Positions 7,295 through 17,249 of a DNA stretch of 64,000 nt are shown here, one piece after another. A program made the position numbers and the translations under genes. The notes beneath the pieces were generated by a model. The model was not told where the DNA came from. It made no database searches and worked only from the letters and a program-made list of their open reading frames with translations. Source of the stretch: an uncultured bacterium (GTDB taxonomy: Bacteria; Chloroflexota; Dormibacteria; Aeolococcales; Aeolococcaceae); the NCBI GenBank assembly GCA_963847225.1, contig CAWJYZ010000005.1, positions 745,648 through 809,647 on the forward strand, in the 5' to 3' direction. The stretch's first letter is position 1; the number at the start of each line of letters is the position of its first letter.

Positions 7295-8116
7295 TCATCC
7301 CCTCTCGACCCTCTCGACGATGGCGAGCATACGCTGGTGCCAGGCCGGCGCTCCGGCGAGAATGTCCCCGCTCTCGAAGACGGCGCGCTCGTCGCCGTGC
7401 CAGTCCGTGACGACGCCGCCGGCCTCGCGGACGAGGAGCGCTCCGGCCGCGATGTCCCACAGGCCGAGGCCCAGCTCGAAGAACCCGCTCCAGACCCCGG
7501 CCGCCGTCTCCGCGAGATCCAGTGAGGCGGCCCCGTCCCGGCGCAGGTCCTCCATCTCGGCGAGAGCCGGCTCCATGACGGCGAGATAGCGGTCCCTCCA
7601 CTCGGGGTGGCGGAACGGGAAACCGGTGGCGGTCACCCCGGTGGCGGGGCTCGAGCTCAGGTCGAGGCGCCGGCCGCGGCGGTCGTAGGCGCCCTCGCCG
7701 AGGATCGCCGTCCAGCGTCGCCCCAGCTCGGGTGCGGCGACGACCCCGACCACCGGCTCTCCCGCCTCGATGAGGGCCACGCTCACCCCCACCACCGGGT
7801 AGCCGCGCACGAAGTTGGTGGTGCCGTCCAGGGGATCCACGACCCACATCCGCGCCGCCCGCTCCCCTCCGGATTCCTCGGCGAGGACCCCGATCTCCGG
7901 GGTCGCCATGCGCAGGATGGCGACCGCCGCGGACTCCGCCTCGCGATCGACGGAGGTCACCCAGTCACCGTGGCCCTTGACCTCGGCCGGATGGGGCAGC
8001 CCGCTGCTCCGGGCGGTGACGATGACCCGCCCGGCCGCCTCCGCCGCGGCGGTGGCGACATGGAGCAGGTCGGTCCTGCGGCGTGGGACGGGGGGCGCGG
8101 CTGCCATCCGCTGCAT
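7295..8116 (-). CDS. suhB: Inositol monophosphatase family protein (SuhB-like)
   Basis: Contains the WVVDPLDGTTNFV metal-binding motif and the overall IMPase pattern. Confidence 0.75.
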   Translation of the reverse strand: MQRMAAAPPVPRRRTDLLHVATAAAEAAGRVIVTARSSGLPHPAEVKGHGDWVTSVDREAESAAVAILRMATPEIGVLAEESGGERAARMWVVDPLDGTTNFVRGYPVVGVSVALIEAGEPVVGVVAAPELGRRWTAILGEGAYDRRGRRLDLSSSPATGVTATGFPFRHPEWRDRYLAVMEPALAEMEDLRRDGAASLDLAETAAGVWSGFFELGLGLWDIAAGALLVREAGGVVTDWHGDERAVFESGDILAGAPAWHQRMLAIVERVERG

Positions 8117-9463: not shown

Positions 9464-9721
9464 ATGGCGATGGCGTCCCCCCGCCGCAATGAGCGTCTGC
9501 AGCGCCGGCCAGCGCCGGCGGGCGTCGTCACGCGCAACGACGCCGAGACCTATGAGGTGGAGGTCTCGAAGGCCCTCACCCAGTGGGCTGTCACCGTCAC
9601 CCGCCTCGCGGACGCGCAGATGATCTGTCAGGACTTCTTCAACCGCCGCTGGGAAGCGGTGGCCCGCGCCGAGGACTTCCTCCGCCTCCTCAACCGCTCC
9701 GAGCCGCCCCCAGGCTGGTAA
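9464..9721 (+). CDS. Small hypothetical protein (85 aa)
   Basis: Preceded by the SD-like ctggaggt 7 nt upstream of the ATG, with high GC3 codon bias. No recognisable domain. Confidence 0.45.
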   Translation: MAMASPRRNERLQRRPAPAGVVTRNDAETYEVEVSKALTQWAVTVTRLADAQMICQDFFNRRWEAVARAEDFLRLLNRSEPPPGW

Positions 9722-9754: not shown

Positions 9755-10321
9755 TTATGCCGCCGGCTCGGGCTCGGCGGCCGGAAACAGCACGGCAGAT
9801 TCCTGGCTGGCCCCCTCCCGCCACACCGTGATGGCCATGCTGTCACCGGGATGGCGCGCCGCCACCGCGGTGCGGAACTGCGCCTCCCCCCCAGTCAGGG
9901 TGTACGCCCCGATGGCGGTGATGACATCGCCCGGGCGGACGCCGGCGAGAGCGGCGGGGGAACCGTCCCGCACCGGCCCCACCTCCACCCCGTAGGCGGC
10001 CGGGAGCCCACGCTGGGCGGCGATCGTCGGGGTCACCGTCCGGACCCCGGCGCCGAAGCTCACCGAGGGAAGGCTCTCCGACGCCGGGCGGGGCAGGTAG
10101 CGGCCCAGCTGCACGGGGTCGAACCCGACGATGAGGCGGTCACCGATCTGGAAGGCCGGGACGGTGACCTTGCCCAGGCGGCCGAGGAGGATGGCGCTCG
10201 CTGAGGGGTCGGTGAGGATGTCTCGAACCCGGTGCTCGACGCCCCGTTGCGCCAGGTACTGGAGGGCCGCCGCGCAGGTGGGGTCACCGGCGCGGACGAA
10301 GACGGTGACCGGCTCGCCCAT
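9755..10321 (-). CDS. Glutaredoxin-like domain fused to PDZ domain protein
   Basis: The N-terminus resembles the Grx/NrdH fold (VTVFVRAGDPTCAAALQYL ... VPAFQIGDRLIVGFD), but with a single Cys instead of CPYC. The C-terminus is PDZ-like (GVEVGPVRDGSPAALAGVRPGDVITAIG). It lies 8 bp downstream of the helicase gene on the same strand. Confidence 0.6.
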   Translation of the reverse strand: MGEPVTVFVRAGDPTCAAALQYLAQRGVEHRVRDILTDPSASAILLGRLGKVTVPAFQIGDRLIVGFDPVQLGRYLPRPASESLPSVSFGAGVRTVTPTIAAQRGLPAAYGVEVGPVRDGSPAALAGVRPGDVITAIGAYTLTGGEAQFRTAVAARHPGDSMAITVWREGASQESAVLFPAAEPEPAA

Positions 10322-10329
10322 GCCTTCCT

Positions 10330-12954
10330 CTACGCCTCGGCGGCCAGCGGTGGTCGTGCCGGCTCTTGCGGCGGAGGCGCGGAATCCGGAGCCCCGACCT
10401 CGGCGCCGTTCCCGCCGTCCCCGCGAGGGCCGTGGCGGCGCCGACGGCGACGGCGCGGCCGAAAGCTTCTCGTCCCCTCGGGGGCGAAGTGGAGGCCGCC
10501 CGGGCCGTGCTCCTCACCGCCACCGGCGGGCTGGCCGTCGGCGCCCCCGGGAGGCGCCTCCGGGGTGGCATCCGGTCGGGGACCGCGGCGGCGGCGGCGG
10601 TGGTGGCGGCGAGCCGGCTGGCTCTGGGCCGCACCCTCCTCCAGCGTGGCGGTGGTGACCGGCTCCCCGTCGGGGCCCAGGCTGGCTGGCGCCGGAGCGG
10701 CCGCCCCTCCCTTGCGGCGGCGGCGGCGGCGGCGGCGGCGCCCCTCACCCGTCTCGGCGGTCCCCTCGGTTGGCTCGCTGCGGGTCGCCCCGGGCCGGCG
10801 CTTCGGCGCCAGCACGTCGGCGGCCGGGACGTAGCCCCCGGACTCCCGAGCCGCCTCCACGAGGAGCCCGTACATGGACTCCTCCCCGGCGCGCAGGGTT
10901 GCCGCGTCGCCGATGCAGGCCACGAGCCGGCGCGCCCGGGACACGGCCACGTTGAGCCGGTTCGGCACCCGCAGGAAGCCGATGCGTCCCCGCTCGTTGG
11001 AGCGCACCAGGGAGATCACCACGAGGTCCTCCTCGCGGCCCTCGAAGGAGTCGACGGTGTCGATCTTCACCGAGCGCTTGAACTTCCTTCGCCCCAGCGC
11101 TTGGCGCAGCCGCTCGACCTGCTCCGCGTACATGGCGATGACCGCCATGCTGAGGTCGCGGGAGCAGCGCTCGTCGAGCAGGCGCACGACGTGGGCGGCG
11201 ACGCGCACCTCCGTCTCGTTGCGCAGCGCCCCACCCGGACCCCGCCGCTCGCGGCTCCCCCGCATCCCGTCCGTGTCCACGAAGTGGAGGGCGACGGGAA
11301 GCGGGCGGCGGGTCACGAAGCCGTACTCCCGCACCTCCTGGGCGTCCTCGAGCTGGCCGTCGTAGGAGGCGTGCGAGACGTAGGCCGCGATCTGGGGGTG
11401 CATCCGGTGCTGGATGGTGAGGAGGCAGCGAGAGGCGTCCGGCAGCCCTCCATCCCAGGCCATCTCGAAGAGTGAGGTGTTGACCAGCTCCTCCAGCCTC
11501 GGGTCGATCTCCACGATGCCGTACAGGGAGTCGTCCTCCACCGGGGGCAGCTGCTTGTGGTCGCCGACGAGGGCCAGCGCGGCGCCAAGGCGAAGGGCCG
11601 GGAGGGCCTCGTCGACCCGGGCCTTGTTGGCCTCGTCGAGGATGACGATGTCGAAGTTCATGTCGGTGATCGCCGAGGTGGCCGCGGTCGCGCAGGTGGC
11701 GAAGTAGCAGTTCGCCTCCAGGAGCCGGGGATCGTCCTCGTCGTCGCAGCGGAAGCGCTCCACGGCGGGATGGACGCGCTCGGCGCGGGCCACCCGCACG
11801 GCGCGCATGCCGGGGGTGCCGGCGAGCCGCTCGAGCGCGTTGTCGACGGCGAGGTTGGAGTGCGACGTGACCAGGATCCGCTCGTCGGGGTTGATGGCGA
11901 GACGCCGCTTCACGGCCTCGACGACGACCGTCGTCTTGCCCGTTCCCGGCGGACCCTGGATGAAGACGGACTGTCCGGCGTGGAGCTGGGAGAGAAGGGC
12001 GACGGCGCGGTCCTGCGGGGGATTGGCGCGCATCCCCTCGGTCAGCCAGGCGGAGGAGTCCGCGGCCGGGTCGAAGGCGGGGGAGCGCACCGTCTCGGGG
12101 GCCACGAGGAGCTGGGAGAGCAGCCCCACCCCGAAGTCGCGGGTGGCGATCGCCGCCAGCACCGACCGCTTCGCCTGATAGAGGGAGCGGTTGAAGGAGG
12201 GCGTGATGTACCCCTCGGTGCCGGCGTGCTCGAAGGTCCGCGTGGTCACCTCGACGAGGCGGCGATGGTGGTCGATGCGCGAGACGCGGCCGACAAAGTT
12301 CGGCTCGTCCTCCGGCTCGACGAGGACGGCGGCGTCGGGCGCGAGATTGATGCTCTCCGCCTCCGGGACGCTGAACTCCACCCTGCCGATCTCCGGCTGA
12401 CGCCGATCGAGTTCGCTGAACTCCCGCCCGCAGGAGGAGCAGCGGGTCTGCTCCCCGGGACGCCAGAGTGCCCGGCAGGTGCGGCACCGCCAGAACTCGC
12501 GCGCCGCCGTGTAGCGGGTGCGCTGGGTCTGGGCCCGGCCCTTCTCCGCGGACTCCAGCCCCTCGACGAGCTTGAGGGTGGCGAAGAGCCGCTCACTCTT
12601 GGCGGCGCGGGCGGTCGCCTCCCGCCAATCGAGGAGGCGGAAGGTGTCGCTCACCACCCCGTTGGCCGCGGTGACCACCGGCTCGCGGGTCGTGAGGGTG
12701 AGCACCTTGGCCCCGTCCGGGTGGCTGCGCATCGGCTTGAGGGAGAGCACCCGGAGGGCGAGGTGCTCCCGGTCACCCTCGGGATCCGGCTGGGGGACGC
12801 ACTCGATGCTGAGGTCGGGCAGCGAGAGGCGGACGTGCGGCGGCTCCTCGTCGCTGAAGGAGGCGGTGAGGTGGCCGACCTCGGACAGCCGCTCCGCGAA
12901 GAGGGCGCGCGGATCGGTGGCGCTGCCATTGGCCAGGGTGGAGAGCACGACCAT
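10330..12954 (-). CDS. Upf1/DNA2-like SF1 helicase (AAA_11/AAA_12) with N-terminal zinc-ribbon domain and Arg-rich low-complexity C-terminal tail
   Basis: Walker A FIQGPPGTGKTT, motif II IVILDEANKA, GDHKQLPPV, and the Q-motif IQHRMHP typical of Upf1-like helicases. A CRTCR...CSSCG zinc ribbon sits in the ~350-aa N-terminal region. The C-terminal ~170 aa are R/G/P-rich. The start is chosen at the ATG giving MVVLS; the track ORF continues to 13434, so the start is uncertain. Confidence 0.7.
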   Translation of the reverse strand: MVVLSTLANGSATDPRALFAERLSEVGHLTASFSDEEPPHVRLSLPDLSIECVPQPDPEGDREHLALRVLSLKPMRSHPDGAKVLTLTTREPVVTAANGVVSDTFRLLDWREATARAAKSERLFATLKLVEGLESAEKGRAQTQRTRYTAAREFWRCRTCRALWRPGEQTRCSSCGREFSELDRRQPEIGRVEFSVPEAESINLAPDAAVLVEPEDEPNFVGRVSRIDHHRRLVEVTTRTFEHAGTEGYITPSFNRSLYQAKRSVLAAIATRDFGVGLLSQLLVAPETVRSPAFDPAADSSAWLTEGMRANPPQDRAVALLSQLHAGQSVFIQGPPGTGKTTVVVEAVKRRLAINPDERILVTSHSNLAVDNALERLAGTPGMRAVRVARAERVHPAVERFRCDDEDDPRLLEANCYFATCATAATSAITDMNFDIVILDEANKARVDEALPALRLGAALALVGDHKQLPPVEDDSLYGIVEIDPRLEELVNTSLFEMAWDGGLPDASRCLLTIQHRMHPQIAAYVSHASYDGQLEDAQEVREYGFVTRRPLPVALHFVDTDGMRGSRERRGPGGALRNETEVRVAAHVVRLLDERCSRDLSMAVIAMYAEQVERLRQALGRRKFKRSVKIDTVDSFEGREEDLVVISLVRSNERGRIGFLRVPNRLNVAVSRARRLVACIGDAATLRAGEESMYGLLVEAARESGGYVPAADVLAPKRRPGATRSEPTEGTAETGEGRRRRRRRRRKGGAAAPAPASLGPDGEPVTTATLEEGAAQSQPARRHHRRRRRGPRPDATPEAPPGGADGQPAGGGEEHGPGGLHFAPEGTRSFRPRRRRRRRHGPRGDGGNGAEVGAPDSAPPPQEPARPPLAAEA

Positions 12955-13278
12955 GGCGTCAGTGCCGTCAGGCACGACGAGATGAAGCCGGTCGAGCGCG
13001 AGGTCCGGTGCTATCAGCGGACTGTCAACCTCACTGCGCCGCGGGCCCCAACCCGTTCGGCGCGAGACATACTTCGGGAGGCTCTGGAGGCACGCATCGG
13101 CGTTGGCACGGCATGCGGCCGGTTGGCGGCCGGACAGCGGCTCTCGAAAGCTCCCGCTGCCCCGACTATACCCGAACTGCGGCCCCTTGCAAGCGTCCTT
13201 CCTGCAACAGCGGGAAAAAGGGCACCGTCCTCTTCGGGTGCCGTCGCAGACCGCCCCTCTGCGACAAACTGAGAGCTC

Positions 13279-14634
13279 ATGGCCGAGATCGAGACCGGTC
13301 GCGCCGTGACCGCCTCCGCCCTCACCCCCGGCGCCAGGGGCCGCACCAGCCCCCTGCCGCCCGGGGCGCTCCTCGTCGGCAGCGCCCTCGCCTTCCAGGG
13401 CGTCACCACCTACGGCTTCCTGGTCATCGCCCACCGGGCTCTCGGCGCCACCCTCTATTCCCCCTTCAGCGTCCTCTGGGCCCTCATCTTCGTGGCCGCG
13501 CCCGGCCTCTTCCTCCCTCTCGAGCAGGAGGTGGGGAGGGCGGCGTCAGCGCGCCGGGTGGCCGGCCTCGGCGCCGGCCCGGTGGTGCGGCGTGCCCTCC
13601 TCCTCGGCATCGGCTTGGCCCTCGCCGTCATGGCCGCGGCCGCCGCCGGCGAGGCGCCGCTGGTGAGCCGCCTCTTCAGCGGCGATGCCTGGCTCCTCGT
13701 CGGCTTCATGGTGGCCATGGCAAGCTATGCCCTCTACTACCTGAGCCGCGGCAGTCTGGCGGGGGCTGGCCGCTTCGGCGGCTACGCCGCCATCCTCGTC
13801 GTCGAGGGGCTGGTCCGCGCCGGGGCCGCGGCCGTCCTCTGGCGCTTCGGGGTGGCCAGCAGCCCGGGCTTCGCGCTCGCCATCTCCCTTCCCTGCGTCG
13901 TGGCCGTCGCTGTCGTCCTCCCCCGCCAGCGCGGCGTCGCCGCCAGCGGACCGCCGGCGCACTGGAGCGAGCTGACCTCGGCGCTCGGCTGGCTGCTCGC
14001 CGGCTCCCTCCTCGCCCAAGCTCTCACCAACGTCACCCCGCTCGCCGTTCAGGCCTTCTTCAGCGGCGGCGACCCCACCGCCGCGGGCCGGGTCCTCAAC
14101 GGCCTGATCATCGCCCGCATCCCTCTCTTCCTCTTCCAGGCGGTGCAGGCGGCGCTCATGCCCAAGCTCGCCGCCGAAGCCGCGGCGGGACGGCTCGGCG
14201 AGTTCCGCAGCCTCCTCTCCCGGCTCCTCCTCCTCATCGCCGCCGCGGCGGTGATCTCCGTAGCCGGGATCGCCCTCCTGGGTCCGCCCGTCCTCGCCAT
14301 CCTCTTCCCCAGCGCCCATCCCCTGAGCCGTCTCGACCTCGTTCTCCTGGCCCTGGGCAGCGAGGGGATGATGGCCGCCCTCACCCTCGCCTACGCCACC
14401 ATCGCCCTGCGCTTCTATGTCGGCGCCACCCTCGGCTGGGTCGGAGGCATGGCCGGCTTGGTGGTCGCCCTGGTGGTCGTCCCCGGCACCCTGCTGCGTG
14501 TGGAGATCGCCTTCTGCGTCTCTGTCGGCGCGGCCACAGCGGCCATGGGAGGGGCCCTGGCGGCGCGCTACGGCGCCGTCGTCCGCCACCAGGGAATGAG
14601 CCCCGCGGCGCGCCGCCCGCGCCGGCGCCTATGA
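13279..14634 (+). CDS. Polytopic membrane protein, MOP-superfamily polysaccharide flippase-like (Wzx/MurJ-like)
   Basis: ~450 aa with ~12-14 predicted TM helices. It lies next to GDP-sugar genes. The assignment is by architecture only. Confidence 0.55.
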   Translation: MAEIETGRAVTASALTPGARGRTSPLPPGALLVGSALAFQGVTTYGFLVIAHRALGATLYSPFSVLWALIFVAAPGLFLPLEQEVGRAASARRVAGLGAGPVVRRALLLGIGLALAVMAAAAAGEAPLVSRLFSGDAWLLVGFMVAMASYALYYLSRGSLAGAGRFGGYAAILVVEGLVRAGAAAVLWRFGVASSPGFALAISLPCVVAVAVVLPRQRGVAASGPPAHWSELTSALGWLLAGSLLAQALTNVTPLAVQAFFSGGDPTAAGRVLNGLIIARIPLFLFQAVQAALMPKLAAEAAAGRLGEFRSLLSRLLLLIAAAAVISVAGIALLGPPVLAILFPSAHPLSRLDLVLLALGSEGMMAALTLAYATIALRFYVGATLGWVGGMAGLVVALVVVPGTLLRVEIAFCVSVGAATAAMGGALAARYGAVVRHQGMSPAARRPRRRL

Positions 14635-15633
14635 CCCGACGGGATCGCCGGCGGCCTTCAGCTGCGCCGTCGCCGCGGCAGCGCCGCGGAGATCGGACTT
14701 CACCATCATCTCGACCAGCCCTGGAAAGCTGACGGTCGGCGTCCAGCCCAGGACGGTGCGCGCCTTGGTGGCGTCGCCGACCAGCGTGTCGACCTCCGCA
14801 GGGCGAACGAAACTCTCATCCCTCACGACATGCTCCTCCCAGCGCAAGCCGGCATGGGAGAAGGCCGCATCGAGGAAGTCCCGCACGGAATGCGTCTCCC
14901 CGGTGGCCACCACGTAGTCGTCGGGAGTTTCCTGCTGCAGCATGAGATGCATGGCGCGGACGTAATCGCCGGCGAACCCCCAGTCCCGCTTGGCGTCGAG
15001 ATTGCCGAGGCGAAGCTCGCTCTCCAGGCCGAGCTTGATGCGGGCCACGCCGGAGGTGATCTTGCGGGTCACGAACTCCATGCCGCGGCGCGGGGACTCG
15101 TGGTTGAAGAGGATGCCGGAGACGGCGAACATCCCGTAGCTCTCCCGGTAGTTGACCGTGATGTGATGCCCGTACACCTTGGCCACGCCGTACGGCGATC
15201 GCGGATGAAAAGCGGTCATCTCGTTCTGCGGCGCCGCCCGCACCTTGCCGAACATCTCGCTCGATGACGCCTGGTAGAAGCGGATCTGAGGATTGACGAC
15301 GCGGATGGCGTCGAGCATGCGGGTGACCCCCAGGGCGGTGATCTCTCCGGTGTTGATGGCCTGCTTGAAGGAGAGTGCGACAAAGCTGATGGCGGCGAGG
15401 TTGTAGACCTCGTCCGGTCGCGACGTCTCCAGGGCGGCGATCAGGGAGGACTGGTCGTTGAGATCCGCCTCGATGAGGTGCAGGCTGGGGACGAGCGCCT
15501 GCACTGAGGCGGCGCGAGGGTTGTTCTGGCCGCGCAACAGGCCCCACACCTCGTAGCCCAGCCCGGTGAGATGCTCGGCGAGGTAAGCGCCGTCCTGCCC
15601 GGTGATCCCGGTGATCAGGGCCGTTCTGCTCAT
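14629..15633 (-). CDS. gmd: GDP-mannose 4,6-dehydratase
   Basis: N-terminal ALITGITGQDGAYLAEHL, the YNLAA motif and the SDR catalytic pattern. The ATG start giving MSRTALITG was verified. Confidence 0.85.
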   Translation of the reverse strand: MSRTALITGITGQDGAYLAEHLTGLGYEVWGLLRGQNNPRAASVQALVPSLHLIEADLNDQSSLIAALETSRPDEVYNLAAISFVALSFKQAINTGEITALGVTRMLDAIRVVNPQIRFYQASSSEMFGKVRAAPQNEMTAFHPRSPYGVAKVYGHHITVNYRESYGMFAVSGILFNHESPRRGMEFVTRKITSGVARIKLGLESELRLGNLDAKRDWGFAGDYVRAMHLMLQQETPDDYVVATGETHSVRDFLDAAFSHAGLRWEEHVVRDESFVRPAEVDTLVGDATKARTVLGWTPTVSFPGLVEMMVKSDLRGAAAATAQLKAAGDPVGS

Positions 15634-15646
15634 CCGTCGGATGGTC

Positions 15647-16666
15647 TCACCCCGTATGCCCAGGGTGTGCCGCACGGCTCCGGGGCGGCGCAGCGGCGCC
15701 GCTGTCCGCCGCCCCCTTGAGCCTGTCGAGATCAGCGGCCACCATCTCCCTGATGACCGAGACGAAGTCCCGGGACGGCGCCCAGCCGAGCAGGCGGCGG
15801 GCCCGCGCCGCGTTGCCGCAGAGGCGCACCGGCTCAGCGGGCCGGGTGAGCGCCGGATCGGAGACGACGTGCCGCCGCCAGTCGAGGCCGACCTCGGCGA
15901 AGGCGATGTCGAGGACCTCGCGCAGGCTGTGGGTCTCACCCGTCGCGACCACGTAGTCGTCGGGCGTGTCGCGCTGCAGGGCGAGGCGCATGGCGCGCAC
16001 GTAGTCGGGCGCATATCCCCAGTCGCGCTCGACGTCGAGGTTGCCGAGGCGCAGCTCGGCGGCCAGGCCGAGGGCGATGCGGGCGGCGCCGTCGCTCACC
16101 TTGCGGGTCACGAAGTGGAGGCCCCGCCGCGGCGACTCGTGGTTGTAGAGGATCGTCGTCGCGGCGAAGATGCCGTGGCTCTGCCGGTAGACGGCGACGA
16201 TCTGGTGGGCGAATGACTTGGCCACACCGTAGGGAGAGATCGGCTGGAGAGGGGTGCTCTCGTCCTGCGGCGACGTGGCGGCGCCGGCAAAGATCTCCGC
16301 GCTCGAGGCCTGCAGGAGGCGGATTGCCGGATCGATGCGGCGGATGGTTTCGAGCAGGCGGAGGACCCCGAGACCGGTCACCTCGCCAGTGGTGAGGGGA
16401 TCGTCGAAGGATGCCGCGACCGATGTCGCCGCCGCCAGGTTGTAGATGTGCCGGGGGCGGGAGGCGCGGACCGCCGCCTCCAACGAGGCCTCATCGGCCA
16501 GGCTCGCCTCCAGGATGCGGACCTCTCCGGGCACACCCTCCCCGGGCAGATCCCCGGGGCGCGCCAATCCGTGCACCTCCCACCCCTCGGCGAGGAGCTG
16601 CTCGGCCAGGTACGGTCCATCTTGGCCTGTGATCCCGGTGATGAGAGCCCGGGGGGTTCCCGTCAT
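15647..16666 (-). CDS. GDP-mannose 4,6-dehydratase paralog
   Basis: N-terminal ALITGITGQDGPYLAEQL with YNLAA and NHESPRRG motifs. The ATG start giving MTGTPRALITG was verified. It is a tandem paralog of the downstream gmd. Confidence 0.8.
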   Translation of the reverse strand: MTGTPRALITGITGQDGPYLAEQLLAEGWEVHGLARPGDLPGEGVPGEVRILEASLADEASLEAAVRASRPRHIYNLAAATSVAASFDDPLTTGEVTGLGVLRLLETIRRIDPAIRLLQASSAEIFAGAATSPQDESTPLQPISPYGVAKSFAHQIVAVYRQSHGIFAATTILYNHESPRRGLHFVTRKVSDGAARIALGLAAELRLGNLDVERDWGYAPDYVRAMRLALQRDTPDDYVVATGETHSLREVLDIAFAEVGLDWRRHVVSDPALTRPAEPVRLCGNAARARRLLGWAPSRDFVSVIREMVAADLDRLKGAADSGAAAPPRSRAAHPGHTG

Positions 16667-16730
16667 GGTCGACGAGCATAGGCCGGGAGGATGCGCTGGC
16701 CGGCCTTGCTCGCACCTGTAGGATCGGAAC

Positions 16731-17249
16731 ATGACGGACAACGAGAGCGGCGTCGATCTCTCTGGCCTGCATCGCGAGCTCGATCGGCTCAAGGCCCAGC
16801 TCTGCCGCTGCGGCCACCAGGGGACGTGCCTCGCCTGCCAGGGCTTCGAGGTGGTGCGCCAGCAGGCCCAGGCGGTGGCCGCGGCGGCTTCGCAGCCCGT
16901 GCTCATGCAGGTGGCCCAGGAGGCGGCCATCCGCGATCTCTTCAGCCAGCTCGGTGGGCTGCAGGAGAAGCTCACCGGCGACCCCCAGCTCTCCGACCTC
17001 ATGGCCCGCTTCGCGGAGCGGGTGCAGGAGGACCTCGGCGGCCCGCAGGAGCTGGAGAGGCTCCTCCGCGGCTTGGGCCTGGGCGGGCCCCGGGGACCGT
17101 TTGGCGAAGCCGGCCCGCCGAGCCCGCCCGGTCCGCTGCCGTACGACGACCGTCCCGCGCGTCCCTCGCCCCCGACCCACCCACCCGGGGAGGATGAGGG
17201 CTCGCCTCAGTCTCCCTCGGACGGCGACGAGCCTCCTCCGGCCGCCTGA
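16731..17249 (+). CDS. Hypothetical protein with CxC...CxxC cluster and Pro-rich C-terminus
   Basis: High GC3 coding bias. CRCGHQGTCLACQG is a putative zinc ribbon. It overlaps the 3' end of the convergent regulator gene by ~40 nt. Weak. Confidence 0.35.
   Translation: MTDNESGVDLSGLHRELDRLKAQLCRCGHQGTCLACQGFEVVRQQAQAVAAAASQPVLMQVAQEAAIRDLFSQLGGLQEKLTGDPQLSDLMARFAERVQEDLGGPQELERLLRGLGLGGPRGPFGEAGPPSPPGPLPYDDRPARPSPPTHPPGEDEGSPQSPSDGDEPPPAA

Follow-up and report, generated by a model that had tools for sequence, protein, structure and literature searches.

Helicases of the Upf1-like SF1B type are built on a RecA1/RecA2 core, to which stalk helices and a 1B beta-barrel are added, and IGHMBP2 (Smubp-2) carries additional nucleic-acid-binding modules, an R3H domain and an AN1 zinc finger, on the C-terminal side of the helicase. 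In Upf1 and in nidovirus nsp13/nsp10, a Cys-rich zinc module (CH domain and ZBD, respectively) lies N-terminal to stalk, 1B, RecA1 and RecA2; the zinc modules of Upf1 and nsp13 regulate the motor and dock partners, Upf2 in the case of Upf1. Related motors occur in anti-phage systems. Nhi is an N-terminal nuclease domain fused to an SF1 helicase. Mokosh combines a COG1112 Upf1-like helicase with a PLD nuclease, in type I also with a Ser/Thr kinase domain; type I consists of MkoA and MkoB and type II of MkoC, and the nuclease is either a partner gene or a C-terminal fusion (10.1101/2022.05.11.491447). In Hachiman, HamB is an SF2 Ski2-like helicase and HamA a DUF1837 nuclease (PMC12278908). Here we analyze an Upf1-like helicase gene and the gene directly downstream, which encodes a glutaredoxin (Grx) fold fused to a PDZ domain, in a stretch of 64,000 nucleotides from an uncultured bacterium of the Dormibacteria (contig CAWJYZ010000005.1; the whole stretch is called the window below).

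The two genes are a real operon, which occupies one conserved chromosomal position across Dormibacterota. On the minus strand of the window, the helicase stop codon is followed, in 5' to 3' order, by 8 bp and the ATG of the 188-aa partner; the gap had been reported in an earlier sequence-only reading of this DNA and reads directly as AGGAAGGC. In a species scan with one genome per GTDB species, which covered at least 125 relatives and from which 80 loci were kept, the Grx-PDZ gene was found directly 3' of the helicase gene in 59 of the 63 Dormibacterota species genomes with enough downstream sequence. The genes were mostly 3-12 bp apart or overlapped by 4-8 bp, and they are probably translationally coupled. 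A reciprocal metagenome scan seeded with Grx-PDZ identified the helicase upstream and on the same strand at 56/56 informative loci, and the pairing first noticed in a single sequence is thereby borne out. The parts of the operon are as follows.

10330..12954, minus strand: helicase coding sequence as annotated, 874 aa plus stop, Upf1/IGHMBP2-like SF1B (identical to the public gene call P0001; Pfam AAA_11 and AAA_12; PDB sequence matches; Foldseek)
12643..12954, minus strand: helicase residues 1-104, small alpha/beta module predicted with low to moderate confidence, no known fold matched (AlphaFold2, pLDDT 45-89 in the model of the N-terminal region only)
12103..12645, minus strand: predicted stalk helices (residues 104-143 and 256-284) and 1B beta-barrel (residues 189-252) (AlphaFold2 secondary structure; Foldseek)
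12415..12519, minus strand: four-Cys zinc ribbon, residues 146-180 (C157, C160, C172 and C175; CxxC-11-CxxC)
10843..12024, minus strand: RecA1 and RecA2 motor core, residues 311-704 (motifs, Pfam)
10333..10842, minus strand: disordered Arg/Gly/Pro-rich tail, residues 705-874 (170 aa), with three poly-Arg blocks (composition, alignment)
10322..10329, minus strand: 8-bp intergenic spacer, resembling a ribosome-binding site (direct sequence reading)
9755..10321, minus strand: partner gene, 188 aa, Grx fold (residues 5-76) and HtrA-type PDZ (residues 88-179), cytoplasmic (Pfam, NCBIfam, PDB sequence matches)

In its behaviour the helicase is like a gene that is inherited vertically and strongly constrained by purifying selection, and unlike an accessory gene. 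Homologs number in the hundreds (68-89% identity, 830-970 aa), and the named sources are mostly Candidatus Dormibacteria or Dormibacteraeota. The 80 kept loci represent one locus per genome, and a single helicase locus was kept from the closed 3.34-Mb chromosome OY970355.1. Downstream of the pair, relatives have a kept neighbourhood of a small open reading frame (ORF), a DUF72 gene, an inositol monophosphatase (IMPase) and a FabI-like reductase (fabI). Mean identity to the window copy was 76-77% for the helicase, compared with 75% for FabI, 68% for IMPase, 66% for Grx-PDZ and 65% for DUF72, and helicase identity was correlated with FabI identity (r = 0.72). The accessory or defence character suspected in the sequence-only reading does not agree with a gene that is single-copy, syntenic and conserved like FabI, without a nuclease and without plasmid or phage matches. 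That reading had also named two outcomes that would speak against its proposal, namely widespread core homologs lacking the partner, and a tail and N-terminal domain that vanish once indel errors are corrected. The result is mixed: homologs are widespread and core-like, but they belong to one phylum and come with the partner, and the tail and the N-terminal domain persist.

The four genomes without the partner fall into two lineages (L038/L057 and L063/L066). Residues specific to these four were found at only 6 scattered positions and were uninformative. In L066, a gene that is EAL-domain-like by translation occupies the partner's place. Most of the 80 loci are titled as Dormibacterota metagenome-assembled genomes (MAGs), and several carry other labels: L001, L003, L004, L006, L007, L023, L024, L044 and L067 have the locus at 75-83% identity on contigs titled Binatia, Chloroflexia, Actinomycetes, Acidiferrales and Saccharimonadales. 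Such foreign titles probably reflect mislabelled or contaminated MAGs.

By its domains and motifs the helicase is assigned to the Upf1-like SF1B family, with an ATPase/helicase machinery that is predicted to be intact, and the corresponding claim of the sequence-only reading stands. The Pfam matches to AAA_11 (114 bits, 1e-32) and AAA_12 (151 bits, 4.6e-44) both pass the cut-off of 27. Beside the two Pfam domains, the other marks of the family were found as well, that is the helicase motifs and a stalk and 1B barrel preceding RecA1. The motifs include Walker A GPPGTGKT (334-341), DEAN (440-443), GDHKQLPP (464-471) and VAVSRAR (669-675); motifs I, II, III and VI are intact, and invariant or nearly so in an alignment of 63 sequences (the window protein and 62 full-length homologs from genome loci) and in another of 29. 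The reading frame of the core is supported by codon-position GC content. In a window with ~72% GC, the full minus-strand ORF around the helicase extends from 10330 to 13434, and the coding signal, a third-position GC content (GC3) of 0.90-0.98, was seen from ~12984 downward only. GC3 is 0.80-0.90 in the tail, but codon positions 1 and 2 are GC-rich there too. The ATG at 12954 gives the 874-aa product of the public gene call.

Among known structures, IGHMBP2 (4b3f, 4b3g; TIGR00376) is the best match in both sequence and fold. A PDB sequence search aligned residues ~327-720 only, to IGHMBP2, Upf1, SETX/Sen1, Dna2 and ZNFX1, while Foldseek with the whole model returned IGHMBP2 4b3g (TM 0.70, target-normalised), as well as Upf1, SETX and Dna2, over ~680 columns. 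The two proteins share the SF1B RecA1/RecA2 core, the stalk helices and the 1B beta-barrel, and both have extra nucleic-acid-binding modules C-terminal to the helicase. However, the window helicase scores 215 bits against a TIGR00376 cut-off of 349 and is not an IGHMBP2 equivalog, and neither R3H nor zf-AN1 was found in it by Pfam. Further differences are its disordered poly-Arg tail, the insertion of a Cys4 ribbon, an N-terminal module of 100 extra residues and the dedicated partner Grx-PDZ.

The N-terminal region had been described in the sequence-only reading as ~350 uncharacterised residues with a CxxC...CxxC ribbon. The ribbon was confirmed: its four Cys residues are invariant in 63 Dormibacterota sequences and also in the distant homologs P0149 and P0151. 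As for the remainder, the models show residues ~105-305 to be the stalk and 1B barrel usual in the Upf1 family, into which the zinc ribbon is inserted, and residues 1-104 alone are left over from the fold searches without a known match. AlphaFold2 models of residues 1-720 (mean pLDDT 80) and 1-310 (mean pLDDT 83) agree in layout, with two long helices (104-143), the ribbon (146-180), the barrel (189-252), two further helices (256-284) and RecA1 from 312. Confidence is high across residues 105-290 (pLDDT 84-96), and the ribbon is predicted as beta-hairpins (pLDDT ~90). In a Foldseek search of the PDB, the N-terminal model alone had no match at E <= 0.001; the sole long-alignment matches, at a probability of ~0.85, were to the stalk/1B regions of IGHMBP2 and Upf1, and no nuclease fold was among the matches. 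A BFVD search with the same model gave nothing convincing.

The N-terminal 305 residues are rare. Among 1.84 billion cluster representatives they matched 17 proteins, which represent three full-length clusters, the Dormibacterota one, P0149 and P0151 (28-30% identity for the last two), and no match was found in plasmid and phage collections. P0149 and P0151 come without the partner and without the tail, and their adjoining genes were uninformative. The arrangement is reminiscent of Upf1 and nsp13, but where these have a multi-zinc CH domain or ZBD, the window helicase has a single simple four-Cys ribbon placed between stalk and barrel. This ribbon has no sequence similarity to the CH domain of Upf1 or the ZBD of nsp13, and the partner in the window is a PDZ protein.

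The Arg-rich tail is a constant part of the helicase. As stated in the sequence-only reading, the window copy ends in ~170 aa of poly-Arg/Gly character (residues 705-874) with runs of R10, R5 and R7, which are coded mainly by (CGC)n and form period-3 arrays in the DNA. In 63/63 full-length sequences a tail was found, 133-200 aa long, even though column conservation is 18-46% in the tail versus 80-98% in the core. The mean composition is 17% R, 18% G and 13% P with 6% hydrophobic residues, the net charge is +6 to +29, and every tail has 2-4 blocks of at least 4 basic residues. GPDG occurs between the blocks in 31/63 tails, and LHFAP...SFRPRRRRRR in one clade. More broadly, (L/V)GPDG(E/Q)P(I/L) is repeated one to four times between poly-Arg blocks (for example in L038 and L057), and HF(A/E)P...S(F/Y)RPRRRR precedes the last block in several clades; these recurring motifs are possible docking motifs.

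Short homologs do not contradict the constancy of the tail. L040 and L062 are frameshifted with the tail complete in another frame, and L042 breaks off near a contig end. The frameshifts in the helicase frame lie at ~10079 in L040, ~10079 in L062 and ~8350 in L073, the protein going on in another frame in each case, and they probably stem from indels that assembly introduced close to homopolymer or (CGC)n tracts and not from real truncations. Because the tail is present in 63/63 homologs with its block pattern kept, and because the L040 and L062 tails are intact in another frame, an origin by read-through or indels was rejected. The idea that poly-Arg is common in the phylum at large was rejected as well: runs of at least R6 were found in no further coding-like ORF, either of the window or of 1.72 Mb of sequence, nearly all of it from Dormibacterota loci and biased to this neighbourhood. 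An analogy comes from the Arg-rich segments in RNase E and the C-terminal extensions of DEAD-box helicases, which are likewise basic, low-complexity tails on nucleic-acid enzymes, poorly conserved and always present. The window tail differs from them by uninterrupted R7-R10 blocks, by Gly/Pro/acidic spacers and by its attachment to an SF1B helicase, and no homology is implied.

The partner fuses two folds in a protein of 190 aa that was seen only beside helicases of the window type. Pfam places Glutaredoxin at residues 5-64 and PDZ_2/PDZ_6 at residues 104-177. Of 323 homologs, the best 120 listed have 157-212 aa, most of them ~190, and the named ones are nearly all from Dormibacterota. The sequence-only reading had reported a Grx domain with a single-Cys DPTC motif fused to a PDZ domain. 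Domains and motif are present, but the Cys is not conserved: the site reads D-P-x-S in 38/61 homologs and D-P-x-C in 23/61, with Asp at the first position in 61/61, and no other conserved Cys was found across the homolog alignment. Because the Grx Cys is absent from 38/61 and no other Cys is conserved, redox chemistry is not the conserved function of the partner. A CxxC or CGFS site with its conserved N-terminal Cys, as in functional glutaredoxins, was not found.

The PDZ part is of the HtrA/DegP type, with PDB sequence matches to the PDZ domains of DegP, DegQ and AlgW. HtrA/DegP protease profiles match this part only, at 16-42 bits compared with cut-offs of 408-756, and a trypsin-like domain was not found. 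The PDZ domain is most similar to those of DegP, DegQ and AlgW, and the Grx domain to YruB-type and small Grx proteins, but the partner differs from HtrA/DegP and YruB-type proteins in that it lacks both a protease domain and a CxxC or CGFS site, and in being cytoplasmic. Its VSFGAGVR segment is invariant in homologs; by comparison with DegP, this segment is predicted to correspond to the loop that binds the carboxylate. The last two helicase residues are [DE][AGV] in 30/62 cases, typically within ...GDAPE[A/G], with Glu making up 6.7% of the tail (kinship was ignored in the count). This suggests the helicase C-terminus as a ligand of the partner's PDZ domain.

The annotated start of the helicase (ATG at 12954), which is used in the public annotation and in the sequence-only reading, is probably wrong. 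Three features upstream of it are listed here.

12955..13017, minus strand: probable N-terminal extension of 21 codons, LIAPDLALDRLHLVVPDGTDA, starting at CTG (13017) or ATA (13014) (codon-position entropy)
13029..13032, minus strand: Shine-Dalgarno-like GAGG, 11 nt upstream of the CTG (kept in 80/80 sequences)
13165..13192, minus strand: promoter-like site TTGCAA-16-TATAGT upstream of the operon (consensus scan, 1 site versus 0.1 expected; weak evidence)

In 79 unique sequences, entropy at codon positions 1/2/3 is 0.19/0.07/0.88 in the extension, compared with 0.84/0.75/1.37 for the first 20 annotated codons and a flat 1.35/1.47/1.37 further upstream. Because this pattern is of the coding type and speaks for strong purifying selection, the 21-codon segment appears to be translated; nowhere else is the helicase N-terminus so well conserved. 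Most sequences have no ATG, GTG or TTG in frame where the segment begins; CTG stands at codon -21 in 75/79 and ATA or ATC at codon -20 in 76/79. In-frame stops lie 2-6 codons 5' of codon -21 in 7 sequences, and the annotated ATG itself is absent in 3. The GAGG is located 8-16 nt upstream of codon -21 in 80/80 sequences (mode 11), and the extension motif also occurs inside the proteins of the distant homologs P0149 and P0153. Initiation at CUG (or AUA/AUC), which would yield a protein of ~895 aa, is the most economical reading of these sequences, and such a non-canonical start would then be kept throughout the phylum. The AlphaFold2 models did not include the extension, which may explain the poor confidence of residues 1-27. 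The start-codon call of this helicase appears to be systematically wrong in public annotations.

Other signals were considered in the same region. The segment GAGGTTGAC is kept upstream of the helicase (window 13029-13023, minus strand). Its TTG was rejected as a general start codon, being found in all three frames relative to the coding sequence (offset 2 in 53 sequences, in frame in 9, offset 1 in 7). In the majority, this TTG opens a mini-ORF of 4 codons, the TGA of which overlaps CTG-ATA. The TTGACA of the same segment was rejected as a -35 element, as no plausible -10 element was seen by eye at the proper spacing. An Rfam search of the whole window gave zero matches.

The surroundings of the operon vary between clades. 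A small ORF of 85 aa without a Pfam family (9464-9721, plus strand) separates Grx-PDZ from DUF72 in convergent orientation to the operon, and a small ORF is in a comparable place in L007 and in L038, which has no Grx-PDZ (by position, unaligned to the window ORF). On the other side, the usual divergent neighbour of the helicase in most Dormibacterota, ~300 bp off, is the counterpart of the window gene 16731-17249 (plus strand), for which a Pfam search returned nothing. In the window's clade, an extra block is inserted between the helicase and this counterpart (window 13279-17002; compared with L018-L069 ~7440-7720). The block contains a gene for an unknown 451-aa protein without a Pfam match (13279-14634, plus strand) and, on the minus strand, two genes that resemble GDP-mannose 4,6-dehydratase (14629-16014; 15647 to ~16650). 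The second of these is part of a long ORF (15647-17002, minus strand), the first ~110 codons of which (16650-17002) look non-coding in that frame. Matches of this segment by tblastn in other loci are antisense readings of the real plus-strand gene 16731-17249, and the segment is a typical shadow ORF of high-GC DNA.

As to function, we give about even credence to a lineage-specific housekeeping helicase that probably works on RNA, is tethered by its poly-Arg blocks and has a non-redox Grx-PDZ adaptor. The operon would then be vertically inherited and specific to Dormibacterota, and would combine a predicted 5'-to-3' Upf1/IGHMBP2-type SF1B motor with a dedicated non-enzymatic adaptor for housekeeping nucleic-acid metabolism, most probably of RNA. 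The poly-Arg blocks may serve as non-specific tethers to RNA or other nucleic acids, or as a charge-patterned region that raises the local affinity for substrate, as in the tails of RNase E and DEAD-box proteins. The PDZ groove may dock a peptide, either the helicase's own C-terminus (often ...PE[A/G]) or that of a client protein; the dead Grx fold would offer a binding surface, and the partner would recruit or regulate the motor. The conserved 21-residue peptide with its non-AUG start presumably belongs to the N-terminal module, and the weak start codon may keep expression low. The RNA helicases IGHMBP2, Upf1 and SETX/Sen1 are among the closest solved folds, which we count in favour of RNA. 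Several points weigh against this interpretation. At least two lineages (L038/L057 and L063/L066) have lost the partner, which is therefore dispensable, and P0149 and P0151 share the N-terminal domain yet have neither tail nor partner. The enrichment of C-terminal [DE][AGV] was counted without correction for phylogeny, and the conservation of the pair could be partly due to the generally kept synteny of related genomes. Finally, Upf1-like helicases such as Dna2 also act on DNA, and the neighbours are unrelated housekeeping genes that give no substrate cue. The main rival is a DNA-directed genome-maintenance helicase, comparable to Dna2, Pif1 or senataxin, that would clear R-loops, flaps or DNA-bound proteins at sites of replication or repair, with the tail binding DNA and the PDZ partner recruiting the motor to a replisome or repair factor. 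We judge this unlikely, though it deserves serious weight. The best matches in fold and sequence include Dna2 and SETX, the distribution is core-like, and DNA enzymes of high-GC Gram-positive bacteria, too, can carry tails that are basic and of low complexity. Conversely, a Dna2-type nuclease domain was not found in the helicase, the conserved neighbourhood has no repair or replication genes, and IGHMBP2 and Upf1 score best; none of these points is decisive.

A relative of the anti-phage systems Mokosh or Nhi, with the helicase sensing phage nucleic acid and the partner acting as effector or regulator, is far less probable still and was rejected as an explanation. It is suggested by PADLOC matches to MkoA (E = 7e-98 and 6e-74) and MkoC (2e-31), by weak partial matches to NCBIfam PLuB, Hhe and ProA, and by the use of a COG1112 helicase in Mokosh. 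The likeness to Mokosh is confined to this shared core, as the best stretch covers profile positions 769-1098 of 1112, and ~700 N-terminal profile positions are unmatched by, and absent from, the window helicase. No PLD nuclease was found in the helicase, the partner or the neighbours, nor a nuclease fold of any kind in the gene or its neighbours; a Ser/Thr kinase was absent from the Pfam matches, and the N-terminal domain shows no kinase fold. The gene is not island-borne; it is core-like, single-copy and syntenic in 80 genomes, conserved like FabI and flanked by metabolic genes, and its N-terminal domain has no counterpart in the plasmid and phage collections. For Nhi, there was no model among the PADLOC matches and no nuclease fold among those of the N-terminal model. 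The sequence-only reading had also invoked Hachiman as built on an AAA_11/AAA_12 helicase, which is incorrect. Hachiman is not a relevant comparison, because HamB is an SF2 Ski2-like helicase that works with a DUF1837 nuclease; the window helicase is SF1B, and DUF1837 was not found in the partner or the neighbours. Slightly less credible again is a redox-regulated helicase, with the Grx domain reducing or glutathionylating helicase Cys residues (for example in the ribbon) and coupling the motor to oxidative stress. The glutaredoxin fold, the invariant Cys4 and other conserved Cys of the helicase, and the DPTC Cys kept in the window copy would fit. We rejected it at the level of the family, where thiol chemistry cannot be the conserved function given Asp at the first active-site position throughout (61/61), Ser at the second in 38/61 and the lack of other conserved partner Cys. 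Least probable of all, to a negligible degree, is an artefact, in which the tail would be a lost-stop read-through or frameshift product and the N-terminal region a fused upstream ORF. The tail is indeed of low complexity and GC-rich at all codon positions, and (CGC)n tracts are prone to slippage, but a tail with the same block pattern recurs in 63/63 independent assemblies, its end lying directly ahead of the partner gene, and the N-terminal domain is 60-90% conserved with invariant Cys.

Returning to the housekeeping helicase, a bolder version of it, to which we assign a rather low probability, sees in the operon a bacterial counterpart of the eukaryotic Upf1/Sen1-type machines of RNA surveillance or transcription termination. 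It would be a phylum-specific 5'-to-3' RNA translocase that poly-Arg blocks hold on transcripts, that the PDZ adaptor directs to such targets as RNA polymerase, the decay machinery or stalled ribosomes, and whose synthesis is throttled by the conserved CUG/AUA start. The motor itself is familiar. To our knowledge, there is no earlier description of its accessory architecture, of the obligate partner or of the likely non-AUG start, as the sequence-only reading had supposed for the combination: Pfam, NCBIfam and PADLOC match generic domains only, and literature searches for the architecture found nothing. For the annotation of bacterial AAA_11/AAA_12 helicases, the locus illustrates that a strong MkoA profile match does not by itself make a defence gene. 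Dormibacterota are abundant uncultured bacteria of soil and permafrost, and we know of almost nothing on their nucleic-acid metabolism. With its FabI-like conservation, R7-R10 blocks, PDZ adaptor and likely non-canonical start, the helicase is a well-defined candidate for a lineage-specific transaction on RNA or DNA.

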